IMG/VR virus record: IMGVR_UViG_3300049098_000061
Location: 1 to 56,204 of that record
Strand: one strand, 5' to 3'
DNA length: 56,204 nucleotides
Origin: a virus
Taxonomy: Duplodnaviria; Caudoviricetes
This document shows, one piece after another, positions 12,190-52,557 of the stretch (the first letter of the stretch is position 1; every line of letters starts with the position of its first letter). The notes beneath the pieces are model-generated. The model saw only the letters and a program-made list of their open reading frames with translations, did not search any database and was not told the origin of the DNA. A program made the position numbers and the translations under genes.

Positions 12190-12632
12190 ATTAAAAATGG
12201 ATCTATAAAATTGTTTACTAGGTTCTGTCTACTTCTAAAAGGTCTTATCTTAATGTAGGCGTTTTGCTCGACCGCATCTGCCTCAGTCATAGTGCTACCG
12301 CCTCCACCACTCGCTCCTATAGATAGCTCTCTCCCAAGACAATACTCGACATGGATAATGTTATACGGAGGTAGAGTAGATATATTATTATGCCAAAATA
12401 CTAGGCATCCCTCCTCGGCGACACTAAATGAATTTTGATTAAATCGATTGTATAGATCCTGTGCTCGCCAGTCTCCTGATCGTGGTAGGTATCCTACTGA
12501 CTTTAGAATCTCAATAATAAACCCGCTACAATCAAAACCTACTAGTGGGTCATCTCCTCCCCACTTGTAAGGAAGGCCTAGAAAAGATAGTGCTACTTTA
12601 GTTGCAATCTCTACTGATCTAGTATCTCGCAT
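12186..12632 (-). CDS. NlpC/P60 cell-wall peptidase (probable endolysin)
   Basis: LGLPYKWGG...GFDCSG...HV catalytic signature. Confidence 0.88.
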   Translation of the reverse strand: MRDTRSVEIATKVALSFLGLPYKWGGDDPLVGFDCSGFIIEILKSVGYLPRSGDWRAQDLYNRFNQNSFSVAEEGCLVFWHNNISTLPPYNIIHVEYCLGRELSIGASGGGGSTMTEADAVEQNAYIKIRPFRSRQNLVNNFIDPFLI

Positions 12633-13597
12633 TAGTAGTCTCCTTTAAGTAACTCGTGCCCTTTCCATCTGTCTACCCACTCCTCGATCTCCCATATTTG
12701 TCCTGCCTTGATCCATGCTCTATGCTTTTTGCATTTACTAAGTATATCTCGCTCCATTCTTCCCGCTGCACTTATGACTAGTTTGGATTTCTCTTTCATC
12801 CAAGTATGCAGATTTCTTCGACCACCAAACATATAAGTAGCAATGCCTCGATTCCTTTGATAGTCAGAACTATTCCAAGCGTATCCTCGCTTGTCTCCAT
12901 GATGACATAGCGAGTCTCCGATCCATACGTGCTTTCTTTGTCCTAGTACTGCCATTACATAATTCATGAAGTTCTCACCACCACCATAGATGCCTAACTC
13001 ATCGGGCCATGCTCCTATCTCGTCCATGAATGACTTATGGATTATCATACCACAAGTAGACATTGCAGGAACCTCAATACATCTGTGCTTCTCATATTTC
13101 TTTTGACTCAAAGTGTGAAAAGTATAGTGGTAGTCTGACTTAGGCACTTCTACTACTGCCTTATACATTAGCTGTCTTGGCTCTAGTATATGGTAAGTCA
13201 AAGGCATGTGGAGACTACCATTCAGTTCCTTGTAGTATTGCTGGTAGTACTTCACTGCTTCCTCGGCAGAGTGAGGCATTATACAGTGACTATCGATAAA
13301 CCAGTAGATGTCTCCTTTTGCTTCTAGCATACCAAAATTTTTGCAATGCCAGTGCGAGAGTTTATCTGTATAGTGAAAGTATCGGAGCCACGAGTTACCC
13401 GTCTTCGTCCACTCCTTTGCCATGCTTGCTACGTTTTTGCTCCCTCTGTCTTCTTTCATAGTACTTTGCAGATTGTCTATCGCTAAGACTTCGTGATCCA
13501 CGTTTACTAGCGCCTCGTGAATGCTTCTTAGAGTGAATGCTATTTGAGGCCACTCTCTTACGTAAGGAACTATTACGCTTACTTTTTGTTTTCCCAC
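12632..13597 (-). CDS. Glycosyltransferase, GT2/GT-A fold
   Basis: VSVIVP, IDN, FIDSH (DxH metal site), YGGGEN; DSH and GGEN recall polypeptide GalNAc-transferase-like GT-A enzymes. Confidence 0.85.
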   Translation of the reverse strand: MGKQKVSVIVPYVREWPQIAFTLRSIHEALVNVDHEVLAIDNLQSTMKEDRGSKNVASMAKEWTKTGNSWLRYFHYTDKLSHWHCKNFGMLEAKGDIYWFIDSHCIMPHSAEEAVKYYQQYYKELNGSLHMPLTYHILEPRQLMYKAVVEVPKSDYHYTFHTLSQKKYEKHRCIEVPAMSTCGMIIHKSFMDEIGAWPDELGIYGGGENFMNYVMAVLGQRKHVWIGDSLCHHGDKRGYAWNSSDYQRNRGIATYMFGGRRNLHTWMKEKSKLVISAAGRMERDILSKCKKHRAWIKAGQIWEIEEWVDRWKGHELLKGDY

Positions 13598-13659
13598 GGC
13601 TCCCTCTCACCTGCTTTACTGCTTCGTGTAAAGCTATTAAAATGTCTCGCTCGTGTTTA

Positions 13660-14118
13660 CTACACCGCAACTCGTCTATCCGTTCCCTCAACGATTGATT
13701 CTCTCGGAGTCTTCTTTCTATTTTCAAAACCCCTCCAGTAGAGTATCTCTTTTTTAAACTCTGAAAATCCTCCTCGTAGATATTGATTGCTCGTAAGCTC
13801 TGCAATCACTTCAATCTTAATGGACGCGAAGTATACTACTGTAGACTGAATACTCTTGATCTGTTTGGTTGCCTCCTCGTTATCTCTTATGAGTTTAAGG
13901 AAGCCTTTGCTCCATTTTAAATACCCATAATAGTCGATAACAAATTGCGTCTCGCTGTCCACGATAGCGCCTAAGTACTCGGCATACTTAGTATAGGCAA
14001 GTTTTCCTTTTCTAACGTTAACTAGCGCACTCTTGCCTATAACACCGCTAGTCACTCCCTTGCTTATTACTTCAGACTCGAACAGTCTTTGGTATTTCAC
14101 AAAATTTAGTTTCCCCAT
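13660..14118 (-). CDS. Hypothetical protein in glycosylation cluster
   Basis: 152 aa; overlaps upstream stop; no motif recognised. Confidence 0.5.
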   Translation of the reverse strand: MGKLNFVKYQRLFESEVISKGVTSGVIGKSALVNVRKGKLAYTKYAEYLGAIVDSETQFVIDYYGYLKWSKGFLKLIRDNEEATKQIKSIQSTVVYFASIKIEVIAELTSNQYLRGGFSEFKKEILYWRGFENRKKTPRESIVEGTDRRVAV

Positions 14119-15083
14119 ATCTTTTCGACTTTGCGCTTTTCGAGATAAGTAGTAAGAATATGAACTAGCTCCCCTATTCTATGTCTGTCAAGATGTCTCT
14201 TGTTTATTATGCTTACTCCTCTGTTTACTATCTCCTGTAGCTCGTCCATGTTCCCATTCCAAATACTCTTTGCTACATTGACTAGATTCTTTTTATTGTA
14301 GAATTTACACACTTCCTCGCCATCGAATAATTCATTATGTCCATTAAAATAATCGGTCAGTAGTAACGCTCCACTCCCCATAATCTCAAATGTCTTAGCA
14401 GGAGGCGAGCTTAGTCTTCCACAATCACTAAAACAGCATCGGTACTTAGCGACACATGCGGGGTATCTCGCGTGCCCTACTCGCCCTTCGATGTTTATAA
14501 GTCCGTGACTTTTTAAAGCGTACACTGCCTTGAATCTGTTCTGATAGACTCCTGACCATTTCATTCTCCGCTCGGCCCCTCGTCCAATGAACCCAATCTT
14601 ATACTTCCGGTACTTTAAAGGCACTCCTTGATTTTTTATAAACTCCCTTTCCGATACTGAGAACGGCAGCCATACACTAGGAATGTCTCTTAGTTTATCT
14701 ATTATGTATCCTCGCTGGATTATTAAGTTGATCCTATGCTCTATTAGCCAAGATTTTTGGTTGGGAGTCATAGCCCACCAATCACACTCAATACTGACTT
14801 TGGGGATACTACTACTCGCAAATCCTTTCGGAATCCATGCGTATACATTAGTCATCGGATAGATCATGACTACATCTGGCTTGAACTCCGATACTAGATC
14901 GTCAAAAGTTATTTTACTATGATAAAATTTTTTCCCAAAAGGAGTAGGCACTCCCGGCCCATAGGTAATTAACTTTATGTTAGGTAGCTCGTTTAGTTTT
15001 GAGACAAATCCAAAATGCACTCTTCTCGCTACGTTGTTAGAGTCTCCGTTAGGGTTGTCTCGATACAGGAATAAAATTCTCAT
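14106..15083 (-). CDS. Glycosyltransferase, CgeB/Glyco_trans_1_2-like GT-B
   Basis: W.PFSV, IGFIG, Y..R, KTFEIMGSGALLLT, C-terminal H....R pattern. Confidence 0.8.
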   Translation of the reverse strand: MRILFLYRDNPNGDSNNVARRVHFGFVSKLNELPNIKLITYGPGVPTPFGKKFYHSKITFDDLVSEFKPDVVMIYPMTNVYAWIPKGFASSSIPKVSIECDWWAMTPNQKSWLIEHRINLIIQRGYIIDKLRDIPSVWLPFSVSEREFIKNQGVPLKYRKYKIGFIGRGAERRMKWSGVYQNRFKAVYALKSHGLINIEGRVGHARYPACVAKYRCCFSDCGRLSSPPAKTFEIMGSGALLLTDYFNGHNELFDGEEVCKFYNKKNLVNVAKSIWNGNMDELQEIVNRGVSIINKRHLDRHRIGELVHILTTYLEKRKVEKIWGN

Positions 15084-15877
15084 AGGTAGTTTAATCGTCT
15101 AAGCATTACTAGAGGCTCGCCCTTAAAGACATACCTCCAATTCGGCAACTCCTGTTTCCATCTTCCTATATTGTTCTTTCTTACTTTCTGATAAAATCCA
15201 GATAGTAGCGGTTCGTGATCTACTCCAATCCATGCTGCTAGTTCCGTAAGTACTCGCAATGGTTCTGAGATTAGTTGCTCAAATCGTATGGTGTAGCAAT
15301 ACTCTGGCTTTATTTTCTTTGCGAACTCTAGCCATTCTTTAACTCCCTCGTACCATAGACTAGCTCCGCCTCCAAATCTGTACCTCCTACGAGAACACAC
15401 ATTGTCTCGACCATCTCGCAGTACATATATAACTTTGAAGTCAAGCCCCAAATCCCGTAGCCTTCTTAGAGTCTCTACTTCTAGTACTTTGTCTCCCCAA
15501 TACTTATATTTTGAAAATAGAATCGTTTCTACTGTCCATATCCACTCTCTTCTATCTTCTTGGTCTGCTATACTTCGGAAGTATTCTTTACGACACTTAT
15601 TGAAAAAGTCATCGTCAAAAGTAGGAGGTACATCCCAATAATGCTCCTCGCTCTGGTTCCACTTCGTCTTTAAGGATAGCTTACGGAAGTAGTCTTCAGC
15701 AGTAGTAGGGTTTCTTTTTATTGAGGATATTCTAGTGCCGGTCGGAGAGTCATACATCAAAAACTCATTGGTGATCCAAATATCAGGATGAGAATTGACC
15801 ACTCGCTGAGTGAATGTTGTACCACTTCGACCTACTCCATGAACTATAAGTCTAGGCAACAGTCCAATTCCTTTCAA
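15080..15877 (-). CDS. Sulfotransferase
   Basis: 5'-PSB loop GVGRSGTT, SHPDI, 3'-PB RDGRDNVCS, RFEQL, IGRWK. Confidence 0.88.
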   Translation of the reverse strand: MKGIGLLPRLIVHGVGRSGTTFTQRVVNSHPDIWITNEFLMYDSPTGTRISSIKRNPTTAEDYFRKLSLKTKWNQSEEHYWDVPPTFDDDFFNKCRKEYFRSIADQEDRREWIWTVETILFSKYKYWGDKVLEVETLRRLRDLGLDFKVIYVLRDGRDNVCSRRRYRFGGGASLWYEGVKEWLEFAKKIKPEYCYTIRFEQLISEPLRVLTELAAWIGVDHEPLLSGFYQKVRKNNIGRWKQELPNWRYVFKGEPLVMLRRLNYL

Positions 15878-16712
15878 ACATCTCCATGATACTCGTTATG
15901 ACTTTCCACCTCAAATGCCTACCGTCGTCTCCTCGCCATCTATCTGCTATCTCGGCAGCTATCTCATAGGAGGGGAAGTAGTAAACGTTTTCAGTCTCTC
16001 GCATAAACAAATCAGCCCCTACTCGCACGATAGACTTAGAGACACTATTAGCGGTGATAACGTCTACATCATCTCTGAATGTTGCATTCAAAGGAACAGG
16101 AGATACAGTCAAGATTATTTTAGCTTCTGAGTCATGCTCTCGTAGTAGTCTATACATACTCGCTAGATCGTTTCTAACGTCCTCGGGAGTCTGGATATAG
16201 AACTCGTGCTTATTCAGATCCAATACTCTATTAGGTGGTACTTGAAAGAAAGTAGCTCCGTCAACTTTACTTCTCCAAGTCTCTGCCAAACCTAGAGTAA
16301 GTATGATCACTTCTGCTTCCTCGATAGCTTTTCTTGACTTGGCTCTATGTTCATTGAATGAACGTCTCGCATCTTTGATAAGATAGGAAGTACCTCGCCT
16401 ATACGGATCAACTAAATGCATATCGTCCACAGGCCACCATCTTTCCGCTACTTCCCAATCACTCTTAAACGAGTATTCAAATATCTGTCTCATGCACGCA
16501 CTGTTGTAGACAAAATCCCAATGTGCCGAGGCTACTATCTTGTTTCGGATAGGCTCATGCACTAGATAGTTGTACCCATGCTTAAGCAGTCTATTGCTTA
16601 TATGAAAAGCGAAACAGCTCCCCATAGAAGTTAACTTAGTTTCTTTTGTTATTAACTTCTCGCCTCGCTCAAACTTACTCATCCTATTTTTAAGCTGCGG
16701 GAATAACTCCAT
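15852..16712 (-). CDS. GSCFA-domain protein (SGNH-like, putative sugar acyl-esterase/transferase)
   Basis: Literal GSCFA motif plus TLGLAE, TVSPVPL, SKS, YFPSYE, D.RH. True start may be ATG ~16683. Confidence 0.88.
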   Translation of the reverse strand: MELFPQLKNRMSKFERGEKLITKETKLTSMGSCFAFHISNRLLKHGYNYLVHEPIRNKIVASAHWDFVYNSACMRQIFEYSFKSDWEVAERWWPVDDMHLVDPYRRGTSYLIKDARRSFNEHRAKSRKAIEEAEVIILTLGLAETWRSKVDGATFFQVPPNRVLDLNKHEFYIQTPEDVRNDLASMYRLLREHDSEAKIILTVSPVPLNATFRDDVDVITANSVSKSIVRVGADLFMRETENVYYFPSYEIAAEIADRWRGDDGRHLRWKVITSIMEMFERNWTVA

Positions 16713-17220
16713 GTGGTTTAATCATCCTCGCCGGTGCTCCAGCATATACTCCTTTTGCTATTAGAGATCTAGTTACTACTGATCCTGAGCCTACTATTAT
16801 TCCATCGCTTATCTCGACTCCGGGATTTACATGGACTCCAGATGCGAGAAATACTTTACTACCTATCTTGCAAGGCATGTGTGTTCCATCAGGTGTCTGA
16901 TGTAGTAATGTTACTCTAGGGCCGATAAAAGTATCGCTCCCGATTACTACTCCTGGGGATATTATCGAGTGACACTTTATTATTACTTTGTCGCCTATTC
17001 TACAATCTTTCCCTAGTCGAGTATAACTTCCTATGACTACATCCGTACCGATCTTACTACCTTCCGGTATCTTAACGTAGTCACTTATTTTTATATTAGT
17101 TTCGATTACTACATTCTTTTCGATAAAACAAAATTTTCCTATAGCCACATCTCCTCCGTGTTTAAAGGTGGGGTGAATATGACTACTCTCTCCACCTAAA
17201 TAGCTATTACCACTTTCCAT
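16690..17220 (-). CDS. Hexapeptide-repeat (left-handed beta-helix) acyltransferase
   Basis: [IV]Gxxxx repeats; GSGSVVT and YAGAPAR terminal motifs. Confidence 0.85.
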   Translation of the reverse strand: MESGNSYLGGESSHIHPTFKHGGDVAIGKFCFIEKNVVIETNIKISDYVKIPEGSKIGTDVVIGSYTRLGKDCRIGDKVIIKCHSIISPGVVIGSDTFIGPRVTLLHQTPDGTHMPCKIGSKVFLASGVHVNPGVEISDGIIVGSGSVVTRSLIAKGVYAGAPARMIKPHGVIPAA

Positions 17221-18007
17221 CCCAGTCTCCTTCCCTACGTGCAGGATTGCCGTAGTATACTCCTGGCTCGTCTATTGTTCTTACTACATTTGATCCCATG
17301 CCAATTTTTACTTCACTGCAAACTCTTACGTTATCTCGTATCACAGTATGCATACCGACTAGTACATTGTCTCCTAGTGTAGCCGAGCCTCCGACACAAA
17401 CGAACGGAGTGAATGCACAATACTTGCCGGTCTTAACATTATGTCCTATGTTCACATAACTACCGATATGATTATATGCTCCAATGCGAGTAGAGCCTAG
17501 CGAAGCTCTATGAATAGTAGCATACGGGCCGATCTCTACTCCCTCGTCTATGACTACATTCCCCATATGCTTCATTTTTAAAGGACGCTCCATAGTCTTA
17601 GGATCATAGACTATTCGCATTGCATCTACTCCTATCATTGCAGTAGGATGACAAACAACAGTAGGTGAAATCAAGTTCACTCTAGGAGGCTTATTACTAT
17701 TAAGATAGTTGTGTACTCTGATAAATTTATACTCGACCTCATCGAAATAAAAAGGTCGCATCTTGCCTAGTAGATCTTTCTCTAGCTTCTGAACTATCGA
17801 CATTAGTTTAGGAGCGCACATGGTTATGATTGTCTTATTGCCAGAACGTAACGTATCTACTAGCCGTACTAACCACTCGTTGTTCTTAACAAAAGTGATA
17901 GAGTTATCCTCTAGCTCGTCTGCTGCACAAGTCGTCTCCATACCTCGTATGATGTTCAAGAAGTCTTCAAAAGGTAACTCGGTCGGATTAAAAGTCTCCC
18001 TCATCAT
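17207..18007 (-). CDS. lpxD: LpxD-like N-acyltransferase
   Basis: N-terminal ITF-containing domain; HMGNVVI...EIG...TIHRA.LGST.IG...IGHNV..G match LpxD, including the catalytic His region; shorter than canonical LpxD. Confidence 0.65.
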   Translation of the reverse strand: MMRETFNPTELPFEDFLNIIRGMETTCAADELEDNSITFVKNNEWLVRLVDTLRSGNKTIITMCAPKLMSIVQKLEKDLLGKMRPFYFDEVEYKFIRVHNYLNSNKPPRVNLISPTVVCHPTAMIGVDAMRIVYDPKTMERPLKMKHMGNVVIDEGVEIGPYATIHRASLGSTRIGAYNHIGSYVNIGHNVKTGKYCAFTPFVCVGGSATLGDNVLVGMHTVIRDNVRVCSEVKIGMGSNVVRTIDEPGVYYGNPARREGDWDGKW

Positions 18008-18594
18008 AATCTTTCCTCCTTTGGTACTTTGCCTACTACTCTTGCCGGATTGCCATAAGCTATACAGTCTTTTGGGATATCTTTTGTTACTAGTGATCCT
18101 GCCCCGATCATTGCGTTAGTGCCTATGTAAACATCAGGTAGTACGGTCACTCCTATAGCTATCCTCGCCCCGTCTCCTATTTTATACCCCTTTACTTCAA
18201 AGTCAAGGCAGTCTCGCTTATGGCACATTTTAGTATCATTAGCTCCCACAAACAGAGGAGCTATAAAAACATTCCTACCGATAGATACTCCTCTAGTTAT
18301 GTGACATTGAGCATGAATTAAAGTTCCGTCGAGTACAGTACTTCTTCCCTCAAAGACTGTCAGATGCCCAATTACGCAACCATTGTAAATTCTAGTATGT
18401 GGACGTAGTACTGTCCCGTGTCCGATGAAAGTGTTTTTGCCTACTAGACAATTCTCCTCTATCCGTACACAGCTAGAGATCCTCGCCCCGTCTTCTATTA
18501 CTGATCCTTTTTTAATAATAGTAAACGGCTCGATAGTTACTCCGCTTCCAATTTCTACTTCTAAATCAATTACTGCGCTTGAGTGTATACCCAT
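18004..18594 (-). CDS. Hexapeptide-repeat sugar N-acetyltransferase (WbpD/WxcM-like)
   Basis: LbH repeats, FIAP.....ND, IGAGSLVTKD, YGNPAR. Confidence 0.85.
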   Translation of the reverse strand: MGIHSSAVIDLEVEIGSGVTIEPFTIIKKGSVIEDGARISSCVRIEENCLVGKNTFIGHGTVLRPHTRIYNGCVIGHLTVFEGRSTVLDGTLIHAQCHITRGVSIGRNVFIAPLFVGANDTKMCHKRDCLDFEVKGYKIGDGARIAIGVTVLPDVYIGTNAMIGAGSLVTKDIPKDCIAYGNPARVVGKVPKEERL

Positions 18595-19390
18595 TTAAAA
18601 TGCCCTTTACTAGCTCGTGGTGCATAGCATGTCCAGAGTTACATGCTGTTATCTTTCCTTTGATACTGAACCCAAACAATAAAGACAAGTCTCCTAGTAT
18701 GTCTAATACCTTATGTTTTACACACTCGTCTCGTTCAAACGATTCTGTGTCATTTATATTGATAGTGTTTACTCCGAACTCTGTGCCTTGTGCTTTCTTC
18801 TGCTTTCTCAAACCATTTACATACTTCTTGTCTGCAAAGGTTCTGGCTCTTGCTACCTCGGAGTAAGCGCCCTCGACATGCTTATACACATAAGCACCTA
18901 TTATATTCTTATGCCAATCTAGCGAGCATTCGATAACTAGCTCCTTACTACGAGCTATAGAAATATATCTATTTCCATTCACAATGCTAAAAGGTTTAGT
19001 TATTACTAGTCCTATTCTGGCGGAGTCTTCCTGATCCTCTACCCCTGCCTCTTGAATAGCGTCATAGAATATACTCGCACTACCATCTCCTATTGGTAGC
19101 TCATTGCCTTTAATTTCCACAATTGCATTGTTTATAAACAGACCATAGAAGCACGAGAGTAAATGCTCGACAGTCTCTATCTTGTCTCTTCCTTCCCCTA
19201 AAGTTGTATTGGAGAGACTATCGCCTAAACTATAAATATTGGCATTGTACCACGACTCCTCGCCCCTAAATTGGATACCACTATTAGGGACGGACGGAAG
19301 TATCTTTATCGAACAACGTTTTCCGGTATGCACACCGAGTCCGTCTATTACTACTTCTCGCTTTAGTGTTCTCTGTAGTATTGGTATCAC
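18566..19390 (-). CDS. lpxC: UDP-3-O-acyl-GlcNAc deacetylase LpxC homologue
   Basis: QRTL, G.GVHTG, TVEHLLS, ELPI.DGSA, ARTF, HKVLD..GDL, GHAMH: Zn ligands and catalytic residues present. Confidence 0.92.
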   Translation of the reverse strand: MIPILQRTLKREVVIDGLGVHTGKRCSIKILPSVPNSGIQFRGEESWYNANIYSLGDSLSNTTLGEGRDKIETVEHLLSCFYGLFINNAIVEIKGNELPIGDGSASIFYDAIQEAGVEDQEDSARIGLVITKPFSIVNGNRYISIARSKELVIECSLDWHKNIIGAYVYKHVEGAYSEVARARTFADKKYVNGLRKQKKAQGTEFGVNTININDTESFERDECVKHKVLDILGDLSLLFGFSIKGKITACNSGHAMHHELVKGILNGYTLKRSN

Positions 19391-20403
19391 TATTCTCCGA
19401 TCGCTCCTGTGAATGCGCCTATTGTCCTACGTGTAACATCATTCAACTGATTGACAGTTACTCGCATAGTCAATGCTTGTTTGATCCTACTCGCCACATC
19501 CTCTGCCGAGAAATTGTTTCTAACATAAGACATGCCTTGCTCGGCTATCTTTTCTCTTGCCTCGTTATGCATAAGATAATAGTGGATTCTTTCTTCTAGG
19601 TCATGTAGATTTTCCCATGTAGCAAAGTGGACTCCTGGGATAAATCCAAACTCCTTGCAATTATTTGGTTTGTTAGTCAACAAGAGAGTACCACTAGCCA
19701 TGACTTCAAAGTACTTCATTAGTACTTGATTATTGATACCATTAGCATTTACAAAGATCTTGCTTTGGTTTATGGCTCTAGCGTACTCGTGATGTTTTAT
19801 GCCACTTTTCCAATCTCCTATCAAGGAAGTTATCGGCATCTTTTTGATTAACTCTTGCACATTCGGTCTACTAGGATAAACATAACTGACTAGCCCATAA
19901 ACACACATTACATCATACTTCTTGGGTAAGTCTCGCTTCATAAAAATGTTAGTCTCTGCCCCGTGGGGTATCCATACAGTCTCTAGTTTAGAGGGGAGTC
20001 TGTCTGTAGCAATCTCCTGTCTAATAAGTCTCTCGACATCTGGAGTAGGACAAATAGCCAAATCGATATCAAACTCTACTAGTAGTTGGTTATAATAGAC
20101 CATATGGTTCCTACCATCAGGAAAGTAGTCACAAACCATGAACGCTTTTAAACAGTTCACATGCGCTCCGCCTCTATACTTATCCATATTTTTCCAGTTC
20201 TCCATAAGTATAGCGTTAGGCTCGCCTATTGCTCCTCGCACATCTTGACAGATAGACGGTATGAAAGTCTCTCCTCGGTAGTAACAGCCCTCTCCATATT
20301 GCACAGAGTCTTCGACTTGAGCTAGTAGTTGATCTCTGACATGCTGATGGCCCCAGTTTACTCGCTTGGAGTAGTCAGGAGATAGGATCAAAAGTTTCAA
20401 CAT
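19390..20403 (-). CDS. Glycosyltransferase, CgeB/Glyco_trans_1_2-like GT-B
   Basis: W.PHG, YP.R, SKIF.N, KYFEVMASGTLLLT, REKIA..G motifs; paralog of 14106-15083. Confidence 0.85.
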   Translation of the reverse strand: MLKLLILSPDYSKRVNWGHQHVRDQLLAQVEDSVQYGEGCYYRGETFIPSICQDVRGAIGEPNAILMENWKNMDKYRGGAHVNCLKAFMVCDYFPDGRNHMVYYNQLLVEFDIDLAICPTPDVERLIRQEIATDRLPSKLETVWIPHGAETNIFMKRDLPKKYDVMCVYGLVSYVYPSRPNVQELIKKMPITSLIGDWKSGIKHHEYARAINQSKIFVNANGINNQVLMKYFEVMASGTLLLTNKPNNCKEFGFIPGVHFATWENLHDLEERIHYYLMHNEAREKIAEQGMSYVRNNFSAEDVASRIKQALTMRVTVNQLNDVTRRTIGAFTGAIGE

Positions 20404-20405
20404 GA

Positions 20406-20633: not shown

Positions 20634-21908
20634 CTATTTTGTTTTAAAATTCAGGACTGCCGATACGCCCGTAAACAAATGACTTAATTGATCGGAGAAC
20701 TTTGACTCGTTATTCTTATCGTCGTAAGCAGTGGCAGCAAAGTAATAAGTCACTCCTTTGGTAAAACCCGTAAGCGTATACTCCGTCACGTTCTTAACGT
20801 CTACTACTGTATCGTATGAGTAGTAGTCTGGATCACATACTGGATCTGGCGGATCAGGAGTTTCCGTACAAATGTACTCTTTGGGATCTGTGTCTGGTAC
20901 TTCTTCCCGCTTAATGCAAGTACAGTACTTCTCCCAACTATCTTTGCATTTTTGTTGACTCTCTGTTAACTCACCACTATCAGGTAGTCTACACTTATCT
21001 TTTATTATCGCGGGAACGGCATCGGGAAGCGATGGATCGTATCTACTCGTTACTCCATAGTATATCTTATATCCTGCTAAGTCTTCCTCGACATTAGCAT
21101 CCCACGCAAAAGTAATAGATGGAGTAGTAGGCTTCTGAGCAAATCCTGCATTGTGGTTTTGAGTTACTTCCGCTTGCGTAAGTACTGTGGAGTAAATAGC
21201 TACGAGGTATATCTCACCTAGCCATGTCCTCATGTCTCCTGACTGCCAAGTAATCTCATTGAATAGGGCAAACTCGCAAGTCATATCCCAAGTGCTTCCG
21301 TCTCCTGGTACTGCCTCGCTTGCTCTCTCTACTCCATCAATATAAATTTTGGCCTCGCCGCTCGGCGCTCTAGTGTATACTACATGACTAAGAACAGGAC
21401 TAGCAGCTATACTCCCTGCCGGTGACGTTACCATTATATCGCTTCCATTGCTATTCGTTTGACTAGTCCTAAATCTCGGATGATAAGTATCTCCTGCCTG
21501 TCCTAAAGTAAAGTTTCTTATACTACTATCTTTAGAGAGAGTTACTATACGAGCAGGGCCAGATTGAGTATTATTTAAAGGTTTAACCCATACCTCGATA
21601 GTTATTCCTTTGGAGAAAAAATCGTTAGTCTTTACCTTTGTAATGTCTCCACTGGCCTTGACTAGAGTTGCCTCTTTTACTCTAAGCCCTCCCTCTATCC
21701 ATTCTACTTTGGACGAGTCTGGTATCGTTAAATTAAACGTAGGCTCTACTCCCGATTTGTCATTGACTACTGTACCACTTCCTTCCTCGAAATCGTATAG
21801 GAGAATTAAATCCCTAGTTACTACTTGTCCCTCCGCTATAAAAGTAAAGACTAGTCCTAAGCCTATAAGTATAGCCATGACTAGTAGTATTCTATTTAGA
21901 GTTACCAT
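20634..21908 (-). CDS. Exported LamG (ConA-like) + fibronectin type III protein
   Basis: N-terminal signal peptide; LYDFEEGSG, ITIEVWVKP, IYIDG (LamG); AWD...DLAGYKIYYG...TYYFAATAYD...ES.FS (FN3) with a Cys-rich insert. Confidence 0.82.
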   Translation of the reverse strand: MVTLNRILLVMAILIGLGLVFTFIAEGQVVTRDLILLYDFEEGSGTVVNDKSGVEPTFNLTIPDSSKVEWIEGGLRVKEATLVKASGDITKVKTNDFFSKGITIEVWVKPLNNTQSGPARIVTLSKDSSIRNFTLGQAGDTYHPRFRTSQTNSNGSDIMVTSPAGSIAASPVLSHVVYTRAPSGEAKIYIDGVERASEAVPGDGSTWDMTCEFALFNEITWQSGDMRTWLGEIYLVAIYSTVLTQAEVTQNHNAGFAQKPTTPSITFAWDANVEEDLAGYKIYYGVTSRYDPSLPDAVPAIIKDKCRLPDSGELTESQQKCKDSWEKYCTCIKREEVPDTDPKEYICTETPDPPDPVCDPDYYSYDTVVDVKNVTEYTLTGFTKGVTYYFAATAYDDKNNESKFSDQLSHLFTGVSAVLNFKTK

Positions 21909-23206
21909 ATATCACTCTCCCCAAATATCGGCAAGTAGAACCGATTATAAATGTTATCCCAATTATATCTTTTACGATTAAACGTTTTACTAGCTACTAT
22001 TTCGTTCCTTTGCATTCTCCCTATTATCAAATGAGCCAATGCCTCGTAGTATTCTTTCTCTGTGTTTGGTACTTGCAAATTTTTCTCGAAGCTCCCGAAC
22101 TCTGCATAAATACCATTACCTCCTTGCGTCTCCCACAACATAGGTAGCGAGCGATTCAGAACCATCTCTACTCCACACAATGCTGCTTCCGGTGCTACTA
22201 GCCCAAACGACTCGTGGTGAGTAGGAAAGATAAACAAGTTAGTCATTAGCTGCAACTCTCTCAGCATACGCCTTGGAATACCAGTAGCAAACTCGTCTCT
22301 CCACTCACTTGTAAAAATTACTTCCTCGTTGATTTTCATCTTTGCTAAACGGATTCGCTTGTAGTATCCAGCAAGATCCTCTTTCCTCGCTTTCCCTGTA
22401 GCCCACTGGTTAGCAATGACTAGGCAATTAGTAAAGTTCAGCTTTTTGAACTCTCTAAATATCGTGATTATCTTGTCTACTCGCTTTGCTCCTAACCTAT
22501 CTGTACTCGCAGGGTAAACCATAGTCACATCCCCCTGCATAATTAAAGGAAAGTCTTCTATAAAGTTATACGTTTCCTCGCTGAACTCGAAGTAACTTCG
22601 GTAGTCTTTTATGTGAGGTATTACTACGACATGGTGAGCATTGGTGTTGAACTGCTCGGCTACTAGCTGTTGATTCGCTTTGTTTGGATATACTATCCTA
22701 TGCCTATCTCCCCACTTCCTTATATCCCACCAAGGAAACTTCGCAGTAGGCACCGAGTGTACCCAATGCATCCACGCTACTTTACGTATGACCGGAGTCT
22801 TACATGCCTCGATTACTCCAAGTCCATAAGGTAAGTTCCATCCAGTGAAGATCCAATCATGACTTATCATGATAGTAATATCATTCTCGACTATTGCCTT
22901 AGACAATACTTCTCCGGTTTTCTTTACTACTTCCTTATGGTCTTCTGATAGTTCTTCTTTGCGGTAGTCAGTTAGGTCTGCTCTAGGTATGATATTGTGG
23001 AGAGTGTAGTTTATATCAGTCCACGGATCGTGCTCGAATAACTTTTGTTTTTCTTTCTCGTCAAAATTCTCACAAACAAATAAATGGACTTCGTGTCCAT
23101 TACTAGTGAGCATTCTAACTTGATCCTCGACAATACCAGTTAGCGAGTATCCGTGATTTATGAAGGTGAAACTAGTTAGTATTCCTACAGCGTGTTTTTT
23201 AGGCAT
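21902..23206 (-). CDS. Glycosyltransferase, GT4-like GT-B
   Basis: R...K motif (DRLGAKR) and FIFPT..ESFGLVAPEAA (E-x7-E). Confidence 0.85.
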   Translation of the reverse strand: MPKKHAVGILTSFTFINHGYSLTGIVEDQVRMLTSNGHEVHLFVCENFDEKEKQKLFEHDPWTDINYTLHNIIPRADLTDYRKEELSEDHKEVVKKTGEVLSKAIVENDITIMISHDWIFTGWNLPYGLGVIEACKTPVIRKVAWMHWVHSVPTAKFPWWDIRKWGDRHRIVYPNKANQQLVAEQFNTNAHHVVVIPHIKDYRSYFEFSEETYNFIEDFPLIMQGDVTMVYPASTDRLGAKRVDKIITIFREFKKLNFTNCLVIANQWATGKARKEDLAGYYKRIRLAKMKINEEVIFTSEWRDEFATGIPRRMLRELQLMTNLFIFPTHHESFGLVAPEAALCGVEMVLNRSLPMLWETQGGNGIYAEFGSFEKNLQVPNTEKEYYEALAHLIIGRMQRNEIVASKTFNRKRYNWDNIYNRFYLPIFGESDIW

Positions 23207-41866: not shown

Positions 41867-42321
41867 GCTATTACCCTAAAAGCTCTCTTCATTCTATAAT
41901 AGAAGTAGTCCTCGTCGTACCGTCTACGCTGTACTCCTATATCTGTCAAGGCTTGGTGGACATGCTCGTCTAGGTACAATCCTCCATGCGCCTCGTGTAG
42001 TCCAAACTTATACAAAATAATGTCTCCATTCTTAGGCTCTTTTGGATCTACTTCCACTGCATCGAATTGTGCTTTTATTCCGTCCACTAGTAGTTTCTGT
42101 CCATTATGTAAGTGCCAATCTTTAGGATACTTAGGGATCACTATAGCTCTCCCTTTGTCTGCGCCTACAGCATTGTATGCTCGCACAATAAAATGAATAC
42201 AGTCACATCCTCGACCCTTTACTCCTGTCCAATGTTTGTACGGAGTATCTTGCCAACTAAGGATCTCTGATTGTAACCTTGCTAAATTCGCCTTGTCCGA
42301 GAAGTAACCTTTCTCGCTCAC
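41863..42321 (-). CDS. Tail-associated NlpC/P60 peptidase (GTA gp14/lambda K-like)
   Basis: W..TPY.H...KG.GCDC, GDI, H.G..L, HQA; canonical position. Confidence 0.88.
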   Translation of the reverse strand: MSEKGYFSDKANLARLQSEILSWQDTPYKHWTGVKGRGCDCIHFIVRAYNAVGADKGRAIVIPKYPKDWHLHNGQKLLVDGIKAQFDAVEVDPKEPKNGDIILYKFGLHEAHGGLYLDEHVHQALTDIGVQRRRYDEDYFYYRMKRAFRVIA

Positions 42322-42459: not shown

Positions 42460-43283
42460 TATGTCCACATAGACGGATTATCGTATGGTAGATACGGAAA
42501 GCCAAAGAATCTATCAAGACTCCCACCAAGATTTGAAAATTTATCTCGACAAGCCTCCATAAGTTTATTACATCCAGCATACACAGTTACGTCCTCCGAT
42601 GCAGCTAGGTCGGGTATGTAGTGACGCAGTACTATACTAGTCCCTGTGTGCGAGACTATCATCCGCTTATAGCCACTCCATTCCAGCCACCCAAAGGTAT
42701 AGTAGTCATCTGCCTTTGTTCCGAATCCTGTAGCAGTTACAGTGACTAGATCTGACCCTACGGAGAGTAGAGGGTAAGTAGAAGCGTAACTCGATTTAGT
42801 TACTCCACACTGCGTACTGTATAATTGAAGTGTGCATTTCTTTTGATAGCGGGGGCGAGGCACAGGCTGTCCTAAAAACTTCTCCAATCCTTCGCACTGT
42901 AGAGTAGCTGCTCTCCCTCGTATTTGGCATCTAGCTAGAGTTCCCATGAAGTACACCATACCTTCACGGGGAGACTGATTTCTGAATACTCGTATTACTC
43001 GTACCCAAGTTTCGTCTAGCGGCGCTGCGGTCAAATAGCTCTTTACTTCGGGTTGTAGCTTGTCTACGTTTACTTGGAGTTTACTTATAGTCATATCGGC
43101 ACTATGACTCATCCTTTGTCTGCCTATATATGCTGGCTCATAAGTATAACCATTATAGGTTATCTCACTATCCGCACTAGTTACTCGATAGCTCAACTGG
43201 TCATTCCAGAAGTCGTATAGATCAATGGGCTTTCTAGTACGAGAAGTCTCCAAACCATCTATTTGATTACTTGTCTCTCTCAT
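42459..43283 (-). CDS. Tail hub protein (DUF2163/BR0599, GTA gp13-like)
   Basis: YQKKC...LY...CGV and GCNK....C..KF.N....FGFPY.P motifs. Confidence 0.9.
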   Translation of the reverse strand: MRETSNQIDGLETSRTRKPIDLYDFWNDQLSYRVTSADSEITYNGYTYEPAYIGRQRMSHSADMTISKLQVNVDKLQPEVKSYLTAAPLDETWVRVIRVFRNQSPREGMVYFMGTLARCQIRGRAATLQCEGLEKFLGQPVPRPRYQKKCTLQLYSTQCGVTKSSYASTYPLLSVGSDLVTVTATGFGTKADDYYTFGWLEWSGYKRMIVSHTGTSIVLRHYIPDLAASEDVTVYAGCNKLMEACRDKFSNLGGSLDRFFGFPYLPYDNPSMWT

Positions 43284-44503
43284 ATCGTTGTGGTGGTGGT
43301 AGTAGTATAGCTCATTGTCTCATCGTGGATACTCTGCATTCTAAGCGTAGTCTCTGCGACTAGTGGCTTAGGATACCCCATCTCCATAGTGTCTATTTCA
43401 AACCTAACAGGTAGTAAAAAGCTGACGAGTATTCTATTTACTACCGATACGGCTACGTCTTGCCCTATCGCACTTCCTAGAGTTAACTGAGTCGAGGAGG
43501 GCCAACCGACTACCTTTCGATATAGCTCGGTGCCATCCGGTAGCATTATAAAAAGGTATCTCCCTATAATCGTATTCTCTGCCCAATATGAGGAGTACTC
43601 TATATTCTCTATTGTTATAGTAGTATCACTCGAACTGATAGCTCCTGTGATTACTACATCTCTCTGCCAAGTAGGACTCCAGAACTGTTTCCACTTTCCT
43701 ATCGATGAATCGAAGAAACCTCTTATCTCCGCACACTCGCTAACACCATCCCAAAGAAATTGACCCTCAAGTGTATACTCGCTCTCTGGCTCTCTAGTAT
43801 AACGTATCTGTACTCCTAGCTTTTGTAGAAACTCAGATGGTCTACTAAACGAGATACTCATTCCTTCTATCCAGTTAGGCTCTTTGTTGAATACGTAGTA
43901 CCCTTTATACATAGGAAAGTTATGACTCAGTATCTTGCGAGTTATAGTATCTTCCCACGCTTCTTTGAATGCTACAGATGCTCCTCCAAATGCACTGGTC
44001 ACTTTATCCAAAGGAACATTTTGCTCCATAGTCATATGAAGCATAGGATATATGGAACTTCCACTAGGCCAAGTATTTGTAAGAGTACTCTCAAGAGTCA
44101 AGCGAGTGGTGGTCATACTATAAATTTCGACTACTTCATAATCATCCCAATCGTTATAGATTACAGCAAGACCGCCTACCTCGTAGTTTGTCTTGTCAAT
44201 ATCTGTTAAGTCTACATACCCTTGCCCCGCTGTTGCTTGAGCAGTTAGAGATCCATGCTCTCCCCATACAGGTACTCCAAACACACCTCCTTGATGTTTC
44301 TGTACTACTCGATTGAAGTATGCCGACTCCGCTTCACTCATAAAAGTTATGTCATATTTGACGCTTCTCCTCGGCCAGCTTATAAGTGCGGATCTTTGCT
44401 CATACCCATATACCGTCCTGAGTATACTCGTCTCATAAGTGTAGTCAATGTAAAATTCAGACTCCCACTCACACTCTATCATCATGTAGGCATCTACGCT
44501 CAT
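43280..44503 (-). CDS. Distal tail protein-like, with C-terminal T7-I tail
   Basis: Immediately after tape measure; G.EQR.AL...PRR and F..P.W repeated twice; ends SYTTTTTTTI. Confidence 0.75.
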   Translation of the reverse strand: MSVDAYMMIECEWESEFYIDYTYETSILRTVYGYEQRSALISWPRRSVKYDITFMSEAESAYFNRVVQKHQGGVFGVPVWGEHGSLTAQATAGQGYVDLTDIDKTNYEVGGLAVIYNDWDDYEVVEIYSMTTTRLTLESTLTNTWPSGSSIYPMLHMTMEQNVPLDKVTSAFGGASVAFKEAWEDTITRKILSHNFPMYKGYYVFNKEPNWIEGMSISFSRPSEFLQKLGVQIRYTREPESEYTLEGQFLWDGVSECAEIRGFFDSSIGKWKQFWSPTWQRDVVITGAISSSDTTITIENIEYSSYWAENTIIGRYLFIMLPDGTELYRKVVGWPSSTQLTLGSAIGQDVAVSVVNRILVSFLLPVRFEIDTMEMGYPKPLVAETTLRMQSIHDETMSYTTTTTTTI

Positions 44504-49181: not shown

Positions 49182-49721
49182 TTAAACAGTTGTGGTAGTC
49201 GTAGTTGCAAACGTCACAGTGAAGTACGGCGAGGTCGGGTTGTTCGACGTATCTGCTAGACCCTCACCACTAAACGTCATGAGACTCCACTCGTCTGAAA
49301 TCAAGTTCAATGCACCACCGGGAGACAATGTGACTCGATGGAACTCCCATGTCTCATTTGGCCCCGCTGGATTGTCGCTCACAAACTGGACTGCATACTC
49401 CTTATCTAACTCGGTGTTTGCGGAGATAACATTCCCACTCACACTACCGAGCAAGAACATCGCCAAGTTACTCACCGCAAACTCGTCGAGGTCAAAGTTC
49501 AGAGTATACCCTGTCTCCAAGACCACGGACTTGTCTTTGACTCGCGTGCCGGAACGTGAGGAATAGTGATCTAGCTTCTCCTCAGTTACTTCAACCTCGA
49601 AGCGAGGAGAGTTCCCCACATCATCGAGACTGCCTGGAGGAGTAGTTCCAGACCACGCTGCAATGGATACTATCCCACGTCCTAGCGTGTATAATGTTGT
49701 ACTATGAGGACTCGCTGACAT
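49182..49721 (-). CDS. Major tail (tube) protein with C-terminal T6-V tail
   Basis: LGRG, VGN...FE, HYSSR.G....D, NLA.FL.G motifs; position; ends FATTTTTTV. Confidence 0.82.
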   Translation of the reverse strand: MSASPHSTTLYTLGRGIVSIAAWSGTTPPGSLDDVGNSPRFEVEVTEEKLDHYSSRSGTRVKDKSVVLETGYTLNFDLDEFAVSNLAMFLLGSVSGNVISANTELDKEYAVQFVSDNPAGPNETWEFHRVTLSPGGALNLISDEWSLMTFSGEGLADTSNNPTSPYFTVTFATTTTTTV

Positions 49722-50612: not shown

Positions 50613-51012
50613 ACCCTGAGACTTCCACCTTTACTATAAGATTAAATACAGGAAATATTTTCTTCACCGAGTAAGTATAACCCGTATCATTATCAACAAT
50701 TAAGTCTCTGATACTTACTCCCTCGGGTACGTGTTGATCTCTAAATAAGAATATTACATCGCCACTAGCTATACCCCAAGATCCTGATGTCTGACCCGTC
50801 TGCCAAAGACTCCTACTCGACACTTCTTTCTCTACCTTGATAGCTGTGATGTTTGTAAAGTCAGTGTAAGTATCTACATTGACTCCAGCATCCTCGTCGA
50901 AGTCAGAGTCAGAGAATTTTCTCCAAGTTACTATAGTAGTCAGATCCTCGTCCTCGTATAACTGAGGGAGTATGCTATCCACTGCTGATTGTATCTGAGC
51001 AAAGATTCCCAT
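50605..51012 (-). CDS. Head closure/stopper-like protein
   Basis: 135 aa; position after adaptor; FD...G, GD..F, D.I pattern. Confidence 0.6.
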   Translation of the reverse strand: MGIFAQIQSAVDSILPQLYEDEDLTTIVTWRKFSDSDFDEDAGVNVDTYTDFTNITAIKVEKEVSSRSLWQTGQTSGSWGIASGDVIFLFRDQHVPEGVSIRDLIVDNDTGYTYSVKKIFPVFNLIVKVEVSGYA

Positions 51013-51575
51013 TAAACGACTCCGCCACTTATTCGCTTATACCATCTGCCTAAGTAGGCATAGATAATATCAAGAGACGAGATAGAGCCTTTGGACATAC
51101 TACTAGTCATCCCTGGCCCAAAGAACTCCAGTGCTAGTGACCCACCTAACTCGAACGCCTTAATCTCTTTCTCCGGAAACGCTAGAGGATCGAGACTTAA
51201 CATATGATTAACCACTTGATAGGCAATCTCCATTTGGGTATACTCGACTTCGGCAGGAACAGTAGGAGCGTTATCCTCTATGTCAGAGTAGTCGAGTATG
51301 TATTCTTCATCATCCATAATGAAGTCATACTCGTCATCCGTTCTCCACCATCTCGGAAACTCCAAGCGTTGATTGAAGCTCGCCTTGACTCCTCGAAACG
51401 GAAAAGTATTCATAAGCAAGGCAGCTAACTTCAACCTATGCTCCTTTAAGGACTCGTCCAAATCTAGGAAGGTGGACGCACCGTCTCCATAGATAGCCTC
51501 AACATACTCGTTGAGATTTACTACGGTGACGTAGCTTTCGCTACTGCTCCCGCCTACAGTCGTATCTAATGCCAT
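51012..51575 (-). CDS. Head-tail adaptor (DnaT-like family)
   Basis: SYVTV, F.G.K....Q.LEFPR, VP.EV...Q.E.A. Start set at ATG 51575 (MALDTT) rather than 51644, which overlaps the capsid gene. Confidence 0.78.
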   Translation of the reverse strand: MALDTTVGGSSSESYVTVVNLNEYVEAIYGDGASTFLDLDESLKEHRLKLAALLMNTFPFRGVKASFNQRLEFPRWWRTDDEYDFIMDDEEYILDYSDIEDNAPTVPAEVEYTQMEIAYQVVNHMLSLDPLAFPEKEIKAFELGGSLALEFFGPGMTSSMSKGSISSLDIIYAYLGRWYKRISGGVV

Positions 51576-51603
51576 GATGATTATTCCTATCTCACTACTA
51601 TAA

Positions 51604-52557
51604 TTAAACAGTAGTAGTGGTCGTGGTAGACGGCAGACCGGCATCGGTGAAGTTCTCGACTACTACACAAGCCTGTGGCTCTTCGATCTTCACATCGCAA
51701 CGCATGGTGAGTACGATGATCAGTACTCGCCTACGGATGTCTTTGTCCGTCTCAATCATGATGTCTCGCTGGATACCCCAAACGATATTTTTGGGATAGG
51801 AGAGAAAGGTTTTGTTGTCGGGCATCATGGCTGTCGGCTGTACGGGAGTACCATAAGCAAACATCGGTGTAAACTTGGAGATCTTCTCGTCGCCAAGCGA
51901 GGTAGCTCGGTCGGCAATAGAGTCTCTATACTCCATCTCCACATGATGCGAGACATAGTGTTTCATCATTGCACGATTGCGGAGATACCTCGTGGGCATT
52001 CTCTGAATCGCTTCTTTGAAAAGTCCTTTGTCAATGTCGGTGATCCCACTACCGTCGATGGTGTGCCCGGTAGGAGTGAGGGCAATCATACCATCACACA
52101 GGGCGAGGTAGGAGTCTGAACTTCCGGTATCGCCAAGCACGATTAACTCCTCAAGGTCGAGGGCTGCTCGCTCTGCAATCATACTCATGATGGTTTGCTC
52201 AAGCCCGCCTCTCTCGATGTTGTCTTCCAATACATCGTAGGGGAGCCAAACTTCTGCAATGATCTCCTCGGTTTCAAGTTCGATCAGACCGAGATCCGGT
52301 GCAGCTCTCTTACTCGCATCTAGCGCGGTTCCACTCGCCGGAGCTGCTCTCAGGATTCTACTTCCGAACCCTAACTTCTCGATCTTCCGTTTCGGTGCGC
52401 TCATCCGCACGACTCGACACTCGTTGATGATGGTTGGCTGATCGATAATTAACCTGATAAAAGCATTGGCTTGCTCGGAGTTGAGGTAGCCTCCACTGGC
52501 GATTAGGTTACTTACCGCAATATCAGCCTTTTCGACTATATACCGATTGTCTTTCAT
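51604..52557 (-). CDS. Major capsid protein (HK97 fold, XkdG-like) with C-terminal S-T6-V tail
   Basis: GGYLN.EQA..FI, LEDNIE, DLEEL...GDT, P.N...GI.R.I, R.D...EE..A; ends GLPSTTTTTTV. Confidence 0.92.
   Translation of the reverse strand: MKDNRYIVEKADIAVSNLIASGGYLNSEQANAFIRLIIDQPTIINECRVVRMSAPKRKIEKLGFGSRILRAAPASGTALDASKRAAPDLGLIELETEEIIAEVWLPYDVLEDNIERGGLEQTIMSMIAERAALDLEELIVLGDTGSSDSYLALCDGMIALTPTGHTIDGSGITDIDKGLFKEAIQRMPTRYLRNRAMMKHYVSHHVEMEYRDSIADRATSLGDEKISKFTPMFAYGTPVQPTAMMPDNKTFLSYPKNIVWGIQRDIMIETDKDIRRRVLIIVLTMRCDVKIEEPQACVVVENFTDAGLPSTTTTTTV

Follow-up and report, generated by a model that had tools for sequence, protein, structure and literature searches.

Threonine-tailed virion proteins and a GT27-like enzyme in a siphophage that probably sugar-coats its own particle

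The uncultivated siphophage represented by the IMG/VR record IMGVR_UViG_3300049098_000061 probably coats its own particle with sugar. In this record, analyzed over its whole length of 56,204 nucleotides (the window), seven proteins end in a run of threonine residues, and a cluster of genes lying among the structural genes encodes four glycosyltransferases, one of them an apparent relative of the polypeptide GalNAc-transferases (ppGalNAc-Ts; glycosyltransferase family 27, GT27). With moderate confidence, we favor a joint mechanism in which the Thr tails are O-glycosylated by the phage's own enzymes and form a mucin-like brush. According to this proposal, the Thr-rich tails would be disordered, outward-pointing acceptor tracts, glycosylated in the cytoplasm of the host either ahead of particle assembly or while it proceeds. 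The GT27-like enzyme would be the likely peptide-directed transferase, and a co-inherited glycosyltransferase of family GT4 would extend the chain or share in initiation. Between these two would lie a cassette of exchangeable tailoring genes that determines the chemistry of the glycan; in this phage, it encodes an LpxC-like deacetylase, a sulfotransferase, a GSCFA protein, three acyltransferases, and two further glycosyltransferases. The particle would thereby acquire a dense, mucin-like brush covering the capsid (through the major capsid protein and two decoration proteins, the latter with the longest tails) as well as tail tube, distal tail, and tip.

Threonine Tails on Virion Proteins

The seven genes that an initial sequence-only reading had singled out as ending in a Thr run closed by valine or isoleucine were all recovered, each on the minus strand (Table 1). 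When the 53 minus-strand open reading frames (ORFs) of the window were translated, seven of the 53 proteins were found to end in such a run, closed by Val in six and by Ile in one. Nine Thr runs of at least five residues occur in the set, every one of them within these seven C-terminal tails, and the other 46 proteins contain none at any position; from composition alone, 1.5e-5 endings of the form T5[VI] would be expected among 53 proteins. The runs are encoded by a mixture of ACA, ACC, ACG, and ACT codons and are therefore not a simple DNA repeat, which rules out repeat slippage as their origin.

Comparison with relatives indicates how the tails are maintained. Seven close IMG/VR relatives, with capsid proteins 85-96% identical to that of the window, keep the capsid and tube tails through many synonymous codon changes, with lengths that shift by whole codons (the run drifts from T5 to T13 and more) and a last residue that is V, T, or A. 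Five of the distant capsid homologues (54-57% identical) stop 12-14 residues sooner and are tail-less. Similarly, the tail is present in none of 10 homologues of the 125-aa protein from related loci, nine of which end within two residues of the position corresponding to ...KEL; three of the 10 form the C-terminal part of a 1651-aa protein. Since the homologues of both proteins end where the tail starts, the tail is an appended module, and these sequence comparisons indicate a selected protein-level feature added onto the fold. The 125-aa protein itself is probably tied to the tail fibers.

The closing beta-branched residue, which the sequence-only reading had included in the signal, does not generalize. 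Among the endings found on the tails of related phages are T, A, L, P, AP, and SS, and a closing V/I was rejected as a universal part of the tag. Within single genomes, the last residue tends to agree: it is V/I in 7/7 tails of the window, V in 5/7 of the relative G022, and T in 5/6 of the relative G065. This degree of concordance was reached by 4 of 20,000 shuffles in a test on five genomes, three of which had been chosen via a V-ending tag. It may reflect either a preference specific to each enzyme set or the spread of the tag by copying.

As for the carriers, the label "decoration-like" given to the two paralogs (53% identity over 172 aa) was upheld by fold, despite the position of their genes after the tail-tip gene and outside the head module. 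A model of paralog 1, built with eight homologues, has a beta core with a predicted local distance difference test score (pLDDT) of 80-95 and a disordered T33 tail with values below 50. In a VIA-align fold search of 48,161 chains, the top 19 matches were all capsid decoration or cement proteins of tailed viruses (Z 11.3-4.6), with HFTV1 at 11.3, Adjutor at 10.2, Patience at 9.9, Pam3 at 9.2, and lambda gpD at 4.6. Foldseek agrees, placing Adjutor at 3.6e-5, and the match of the decoration-like proteins to Pfam Phage_cement is weak (0.031). Homologues of paralog 2 in related loci also bear S/T tails. The gene for the Dit-like carrier is located between those of the tape measure and the hub.

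The proposition that the tag simply follows surface exposure was not supported. Portal, adaptor, tape measure, hub, protease, and all enzymes lack a tail, as the proposition would have it. However, four large proteins of the tail-fiber region (677, 811, 728, and 611 aa), presumed to be exposed, are also untagged; thus, not every probably exposed protein carries a tag. These four had no family match in Pfam or PHROG scans, so the labels "fiber" and "exposed" come solely from gene position. Separately, the head-tail adaptor ORF as listed (51012-51644) overlaps the Thr-tail codons of the capsid gene (51604-51644) in another frame; the adaptor start more likely lies at an ATG about 30 nt past the capsid stop.

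Tail-Tube Family Profiling

The tail tube allowed the tails to be followed over a larger family. Eighty tube homologues were collected solely on the strength of their core motifs, using a query from which the tails had been removed. Sixty-two have Thr tails, 10 have S/T or poly-Ser tails, and two are truncated; the remaining six have none, and five of these are the most distant members. Tails persist in homologues down to about 43% identity. The GT27-like gene is present in 10 of the 23 tube-family contigs of at least 27 kb, i.e., in 8/9 of those at least 74% complete and in 2/14 fragments, and GT4 was found in 10/10 genomes tested (the nine at 74% or more plus G006, which is 50% complete). 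The exception without a GT27-like gene, G065, is a complete genome with six Thr-tailed ORFs; in the same place it encodes a GT4, a GT-A enzyme matching Nucleotid_trans (E 4e-4, below the Pfam cut-off), a sugar epimerase/dehydratase, and a methyltransferase. In the whole or half genomes G022, G010, and G006, seven, five, and four tailed structural ORFs, respectively, are followed by the same enzyme block.

Two further accounts of the tails can be weighed here, namely that they bear some other modification (phosphate, or direct acyl or sulfate groups) or that they are by-products, largely devoid of function, of a lineage-specific mutational bias. Both appear very improbable. Although run length drifts fast among relatives and acyl- and sulfotransferases are present in the window, Thr is kept through synonymous changes and, in the tube, over the whole range of identity given above. 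In addition, the tails are confined to virion proteins, the acyl- and sulfotransferases are not conserved alongside them, and no Ser/Thr kinase was found in family scans of the window proteins.

A GT27-Like Glycosyltransferase

The enzyme listed as "GT2" had been noted for DSH and GGEN motifs (residues 102-104 and 206-209) recalling polypeptide GalNAc-transferases, and this resemblance was confirmed by both profile and fold. D102, H104, G206, G207, E208, and H232 are invariant among 47 homologues. As to residue roles, we take D-x-H to be the metal motif and GGEN the Gal/GalNAc-transferase motif, with the downstream His completing the set. The AlphaFold2 model (pLDDT 96.5) was compared with the PDB by Foldseek, and the top ~50 matches were all ppGalNAc-Ts, from human, mouse, Drosophila, and Toxoplasma. 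An exhaustive VIA-align search of the same 48,161 chains gave Z 26.9 for mGalNAc-T1 (296/321 residues, root-mean-square deviation 3.2) and Z 26.1 for TgGalNAc-T3 (289 aligned), whereas other GT-A enzymes reached at most Z 19.3 (232 residues aligned for the best, and no more than 240 for any). Sequence comparison leads to the same family: the seven best matches of the 47-homologue profile among PDB sequences are ppGalNAc-Ts at 5.4e-8 to 4.9e-6 (T12 5.4e-8, T4 9.6e-8, T7 1.2e-7), and the first other GT2 enzyme is TarP at 6e-5. In the profile alignment with GalNAc-T12 and T4, fiDaHC corresponds to FLDCHC and GGEN to WGGEN. Identity to ppGalNAc-Ts is 11-15%.

Neither a ricin-type lectin domain nor a membrane anchor is found in the 321-aa enzyme, for which Pfam reports Glycos_transf_2 only and whose model ends with the catalytic domain. 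It is therefore named GT27-like rather than counted as a full GT27 member, and profile and predicted fold together characterize it as a lectin-less relative of the polypeptide GalNAc-transferases. A complex prediction pairing the enzyme with the C-terminal 48 residues of the T33 protein (score 0.00, controls excluded) speaks neither for nor against binding. The family is large: 245 homologues were found at E <= 0.001 on contigs up to ~100 kb, and among 1.84 billion representative proteins it accounts for 124 clusters at E <= 1e-30. No homologue was found by tblastn in 50,697 records of GenBank phages; thus, the system is invisible in cultured collections.

Conserved Transferases Around a Variable Cassette

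To describe the surroundings of the enzyme, 74 IMG/VR loci were selected solely by the GT27-like gene, with 10 kb on each side. A GT4 homologue lies within 10 kb in 59 of them, and the recurrent gene order is tail tip, decoration-like, GT4, a variable cassette of 1-8 kb, p152 and GT27-like (in either order), DNA polymerase, and portal. The content of the cassette differs widely. None of the 74 loci has the LamG gene or the sulfotransferase, GSCFA, and LpxC-like tailoring genes, the last three of which are private to this phage; homologues of each hexapeptide acyltransferase occur in 5-10 loci, as do those of the PF13524 transferases (10/74 for the enzyme at 19390-20403). All three acyltransferases are found together in two loci, L163 and L164. 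With the GT27-like and GT4 genes conserved and the genes between them variable, the two transferases bracket a replaceable cassette. We also noted that two of the three acyltransferases occur in L166 and L198, and that the LpxC-like gene is absent from these loci, as it is from L163 and L164.

Such variability, as expected of tailoring functions, would also suit a scheme in which host enzymes initiate glycosylation of the tails and the phage genes just extend or decorate the chain or retarget the nucleotide-sugar pools of the host. The existence of tails in phages without a phage glycosyltransferase (see below) points the same way. We nevertheless regard host initiation as distinctly unlikely, given that the GT27-like enzyme is, by analogy, an initiating and peptide-directed one and that GT4 plus a GT-A is kept in all ten tube-family genomes tested.

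The 152-aa protein p152 has a homologue in 22/74 loci, which mostly adjoins the GT27-like gene on either side and lies several kb from it in L168, L169, L191, L192, and L203. A p152-like gene (~130-150 aa) also adjoins the GT27-like gene in G022, G010, and G006. The protein has no Pfam family, atlas scores below 0.9, and a poor model; it may be an accessory subunit. In another observation on the neighborhood, one of two NlpC/P60-type peptidase genes of the window (12186-12632, minus strand) lies directly downstream of the GT27-like gene and recurs beside it in L159, L171, and L195; the other (41863-42321, minus strand) belongs to the tail-tip module.

Thr runs accumulate in the loci chosen by the enzyme. 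An ORF with a run of T6 or longer anywhere in it is present in 40/74 GT27-like loci as compared with 0/17 control loci, and 20/74 contain an ORF ending in T4 or longer (within two residues of the end). Counted by residue, 56 ORFs in the loci have a six-residue run of T and 14 one of S, with at most two for any other residue tested. All 11 loci that reach the tail-tip region encode an S/T-rich C-terminal tail. In four contigs of 113-277 kb with the GT27-like gene, the Thr runs lie inside proteins, where they link repeated domains; a fifth, of 80 kb, gave no match. In L486-L495, which come from contigs of 113-277 kb with this gene, very large proteins have repeated domains joined by poly-Thr or Thr-Pro linkers (...PYTTTTTTTTTTAAPTTTTTPPGEW...), a mucin-domain-like architecture in large phages.

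With these data, the sequence-only proposal that the Thr tag is a portable O-glycan acceptor for phage glycosyltransferases gains from the kinship of the enzyme, from co-occurrence, and from the appended nature of the tail, and loses the closing V/I as part of the tag. More tentatively, the loci may belong to a large uncultivated siphophage clade with true mucin-type O-glycosylation, in which a lectin-less GT27-type enzyme and a GT4 would act on the Thr tails and, in larger phages, on internal poly-Thr linkers of up to eight virion proteins, with an exchangeable cassette. If so, the cassette would diversify the glycan in the manner of O-antigen loci and would yield sulfated and acylated forms in this phage, and the phage enzymes would be the first relatives of the eukaryotic mucin-initiating enzymes on the prokaryote side.

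The Enzyme Cluster

The genes of the cluster, from 23.2 to 12.6 kb, overlap or abut one another inside the structural gene block (Table 1). The earlier list of four glycosyltransferases with acyl-, deacetyl-, and sulfo-tailoring enzymes proved correct, and a GSCFA protein can be added to it. All Lpx-like scores fall below the NCBIfam equivalog thresholds: lpxC reaches 154.8 bits where 187.25 is required, lpxD 102 where 242.5 is required, and lpxA at most 68.6 where 231 is required; NeuD is also below its cut-off. The PF13524/GT90-like enzyme matches POGLUT2 at 0.081 and POGLUT1 at 0.87 in the PDB, too weakly to be placed. The GT4 as a single sequence found nothing in the PDB below E 0.08, and a 28-sequence profile found only BshA-type GT4s, at E 0.006-0.012 over ~35 residues. 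We also observed that the LpxC-like gene, next to an LpxD-like gene and two more hexapeptide acyltransferase genes, all below equivalog cut-offs, resembles the first lipid A steps. The products of 23499-24218 and 20634-21908 (both minus strand) have hydrophobic, signal-peptide-like N-termini (MKIRKFLCAILF... and MVTLNRILLVMA..., respectively), and the latter has LamG and fn3 domains.

Table 1. Thr-tailed proteins and enzyme-cluster genes of the window.
Feature	Coordinates	Strand	Basis
Window, 56.2-kb virus record			siphophage-type gene content
Major capsid protein, 317 aa, ends GLPS-T6-V (...GLPSTTTTTTV)	51604-52557	-	Pfam Phage_capsid; phrog_1623 2e-102
Tail tube protein, 179 aa, ends FA-T6-V (...TFATTTTTTV)	49182-49721	-	phrog_807 3e-34
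Dit-like distal tail protein, 407 aa, ends Y-T7-I (...SYTTTTTTTI)	43280-44503	-	phrog_1082 8e-69
Tail-tip/host-specificity-like protein, 1315 aa, ends SST6VT3ST2VTGST5V (...SSTTTTTTVTTTSTTVTGSTTTTTV)	37919-41866	-	phrog_1101 6e-108; Pfam Rcc01698_C, Phage-tail_3
Decoration/cement-like paralog 1, 207 aa, ends T33-V	37291-37914	-	predicted fold
Decoration/cement-like paralog 2, 192 aa, ends T13-S-T5-V	36703-37281	-	paralogy to 207-aa protein
125-aa protein, ends KEL-PTTPLPIS-T5-V (...PISTTTTTV)	24272-24649	-	weak Pfam Gp77, 0.0026
GT4-type (GT-B) glycosyltransferase	21902-23206	-	Pfam GT1/GT4 below cut-off; phrog_2170
Laminin_G_3 + fn3 protein	20634-21908	-	Pfam
Glycosyltransferase PF13524, weak GT90	19390-20403	-	Pfam 2.3e-17 and 8.4e-6
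LpxC-like deacetylase	18566-19390	-	Pfam LpxC 5.5e-63
Three left-handed beta-helix acyltransferases (176, 266, 196 aa; middle LpxD-like)	16690-18594	-	Pfam Hexapep
GSCFA-family protein	15852-16712	-	Pfam 8.4e-43
Sulfotransferase	15080-15877	-	Pfam Sulfotransfer_3 9.3e-17
Second PF13524 glycosyltransferase	14106-15083	-	Pfam 2.1e-12
p152, 152-aa protein without family	13660-14118	-	homologues beside GT27-like gene
GT27-like glycosyltransferase ("GT2"), 321 aa	12632-13597	-	Pfam Glycos_transf_2; profile; predicted fold

Threonine Tails Beyond the Clade

Thr tails also occur outside these phages. At least 119 T6-V-TAA stretches were found in IMG/VR. A T6-V-stop closes genuine ORFs far more often than A6-V or S6-V does: among the distinct matches listed, 66 of 102 T6V cases have 85 or more open codons upstream, compared with 7/41 for A6V and 5/96 for S6V among the matches listed (Fisher p 3e-7 and 4e-20, respectively). 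The same matches gave 65 distinct proteins that end in T6V and are 100 aa or longer; 46 of these had full flanks and were scanned against PHROG. Twenty of the 46 matched a family, 16 with a named function; 15 of these 16 are head or tail proteins, and the remaining one is thymidylate-kinase-like. The tailed families, which are unrelated, comprise three major tail kinds, two major head kinds, and baseplate wedge, tail fiber, and structural proteins. Complete T6V genomes more often have a GT2 match than complete controls (9/12 vs 1/8, Fisher p 0.02).

In a group of ~100-kb phages (L030, L039, L044, L060, L084, L089, L093, L101, and others), ~53-aa proteins end in ...LWQISKQL...T7-VAP-T7-V, and small ECCN-containing proteins also have Thr tails. 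Six of the records behind these loci (G001, G003, G007, G019, G020, and G024) have a GT2 match; in four of the six (not G007 and G019), an open frame 678-1143 aa long also matches GT1.

Several observations weigh against the glycan-coat proposal. The GT27-like family is present in 3/25 T6V contigs of at least 40 kb and in 2/12 complete ones among the matches listed, and the GT2 enrichment given above is confounded by size, as the complete T6V genomes are mostly ~100 kb and larger than most controls. Clostridium phage phiCTP1 (L386), a cultured phage, has Thr-rich tails on its 132-aa head protein gp11 (7134-7532, ...TTTTTVAPTTTTSTSQG) and on its tube gp18 (10263-10865, ...TTTTTNAPITTTTTTV). Its 86 coding sequences include no annotated glycosyltransferase and gave no match to the GT27-like or GT4 profile, PF00535, or PF00534; likewise, the Thr-tailed G009 has no PF00535 or PF00534 match. 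The phiCTP1 tails imply that Thr tails can exist without phage transferases. Since the tube family is one clade, its counts are not independent events, and the co-occurrence of tails and enzymes there may represent one inherited event rather than many. The GT4 is, by sequence, too divergent to place, including with respect to GtfA, and the window showed no UDP-GalNAc 4-epimerase. The presence of LpxC-like and LpxD-like genes would likewise be compatible with action on a lipid or on the envelope, and export of the cluster proteins with signal-peptide-like N-termini would favor a target in the envelope over one in the cytoplasm. Finally, the glycosylation of the tails, the first-acting enzyme, the sugar with its decorations, and the role of the coat are what we infer from the pattern as a whole. 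The check for co-occurrence of tails and glycosyltransferases came out divided, with agreement in the tube family and in the GT27-like loci and tails without the enzyme elsewhere.

These findings could be accommodated if the tails function unmodified, as hydrophilic, disordered bristles or as beta-prone strands that dock onto adjacent subunits, and the enzymes instead modify an envelope glycan of the host, such as its lipopolysaccharide or capsule; in that way, the enzyme cluster might block superinfection. The Thr tails of phiCTP1 and G009, the scarcity of the GT27-like family among T6V contigs, and the presence in the cluster of LpxC-like, LpxD-like, and LamG/fn3 genes together with the signal-peptide-like protein at 23499-24218 are all in keeping with this account. 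Nonetheless, we consider it unlikely. What is conserved is the pair of GT27-like and GT4 genes and not the Lpx-like ones, and every solved enzyme closely related to the core transferase is peptide-directed. Around that pair, Thr runs accumulate and no other homopolymer does, and lengths of 5-33 within one virion suit a brush better than a docking strand of fixed form. Moreover, the cluster sits in the structural gene block with overlapping reading frames.

Comparison With Known Systems

Virion O-glycosylation of mycobacteriophages (Che8, Corndog, and Myrna) was reportedly described by Freeman and co-workers in Cell Host Microbe in 2023. In the Che8 record, capsid and tube end in ...KTGS and ...SDGS, a common C-terminal motif. 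Capsid and tube of the present phage likewise share a C-terminal end, T6-V here versus G-S in Che8, and the candidate acceptor would be a Thr run of 5-33 residues in place of a short G-S end. The GT27-like and GT4 profiles found nothing at E <= 0.01 in the whole Che8 genome, so there is no homology at profile level. Glycans on capsid and tail-tube C-termini, made by phage glycosyltransferases, are reported for mycobacteriophages in two papers (PMC12619734, PMC12363180). As in those accounts, the present phage encodes its own glycosyltransferases, four of them in the structural block; unlike them, it has seven tagged proteins, including decoration, distal-tail, and tip proteins. Its cassette differs in having sulfo-, acyl-, and deacetylating enzymes, and the distribution differs too. 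As far as we have seen, glycosylation of phage particles is described only for mycobacteriophages in the literature found, and by analogy the present system would resemble theirs in principle but diverge in its acceptor, in how many proteins are targeted, in the enzyme families used, and in distribution. No paper was found on poly-Thr tags or GT27-type enzymes in phages; the supplements of the primary 2023 mycobacteriophage study may bear on novelty.

Like the eukaryotic ppGalNAc-Ts, the phage enzyme is matched over the whole catalytic domain, and D-x-H-C, GGEN, and a later invariant His are common to both; unlike them, it is phage-encoded, predicted to be cytoplasmic, and devoid of lectin domain and anchor. 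The ppGalNAc-Ts start mucin-type O-glycans on dense Thr/Ser tracts, the same substrate logic as proposed here, and GT27 is, to our knowledge, essentially eukaryotic. The serine-rich-repeat adhesins of Gram-positive bacteria provide another parallel, with a GT4 initiator (GtfA/GtfB) and GT-A extenders encoded next to the substrate genes. By analogy, the phage has a GT4 and a GT-A near genes of putative substrates with Ser/Thr-rich tracts, and O-glycosylation would again be cytoplasmic; the substrates here would be virion proteins, not secreted adhesins, and between the phage GT4 and any solved GT4 no similarity was detected beyond the nucleotide-sugar motif. Virus-encoded glycosylation machinery is also a feature of the self-glycosylating giant viruses (chloroviruses and mimiviruses, the subject of the review PMC9614988), in which capsid or fibrils are coated with unusual glycans. 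Those are eukaryotic viruses with other acceptors and enzymes, unlike the tailed phage with short terminal Thr tags discussed here.

If the proposed glycan coat is real, virion glycosylation would be widespread in environmental phages, and an enzyme type regarded as eukaryotic would be at work in phages. From the perspective of design, the Thr tail, consisting of a linker and a C-terminal Thr run, would offer a portable and genetically encodable tag for cytoplasmic glyco-engineering of proteins or phage particles. In phage ecology, the coat would be a new variable surface trait that may influence adsorption, stability, sticking to mucus or biofilms, and evasion of hosts or grazers.

Record and Genome Layout

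All credible genes of the window lie on the minus strand. Family matches were obtained for capsid protease, major capsid protein, adaptor, tail tube, tape measure, DNA polymerase, portal, primase, and helicase, and family scans found no terminase in the window; the record is thus incomplete. The tip module resembles that of gene transfer agents and phiJL001 (Dit-like protein, hub, NlpC/P60, and the 1315-aa tip protein) and is followed by large proteins without a known family. The closest capsid protein among GenBank phages is only ~50% identical, and the hosts of such phages are mixed. No tRNA genes were found in the window, and a host search with the phage histidine kinase against genome contigs gave a single, irrelevant match at 24% identity. 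The LpxC-like gene is the sole, weak pointer to a Gram-negative host. The histidine kinase itself (32204-34441, minus strand) is a 745-aa hybrid protein with PAS, HisKA, HATPase, and receiver domains, encoded amid the large genes of the tail-fiber region; it matches phrog_5982 at 1e-73, indicating similar proteins in other phages.

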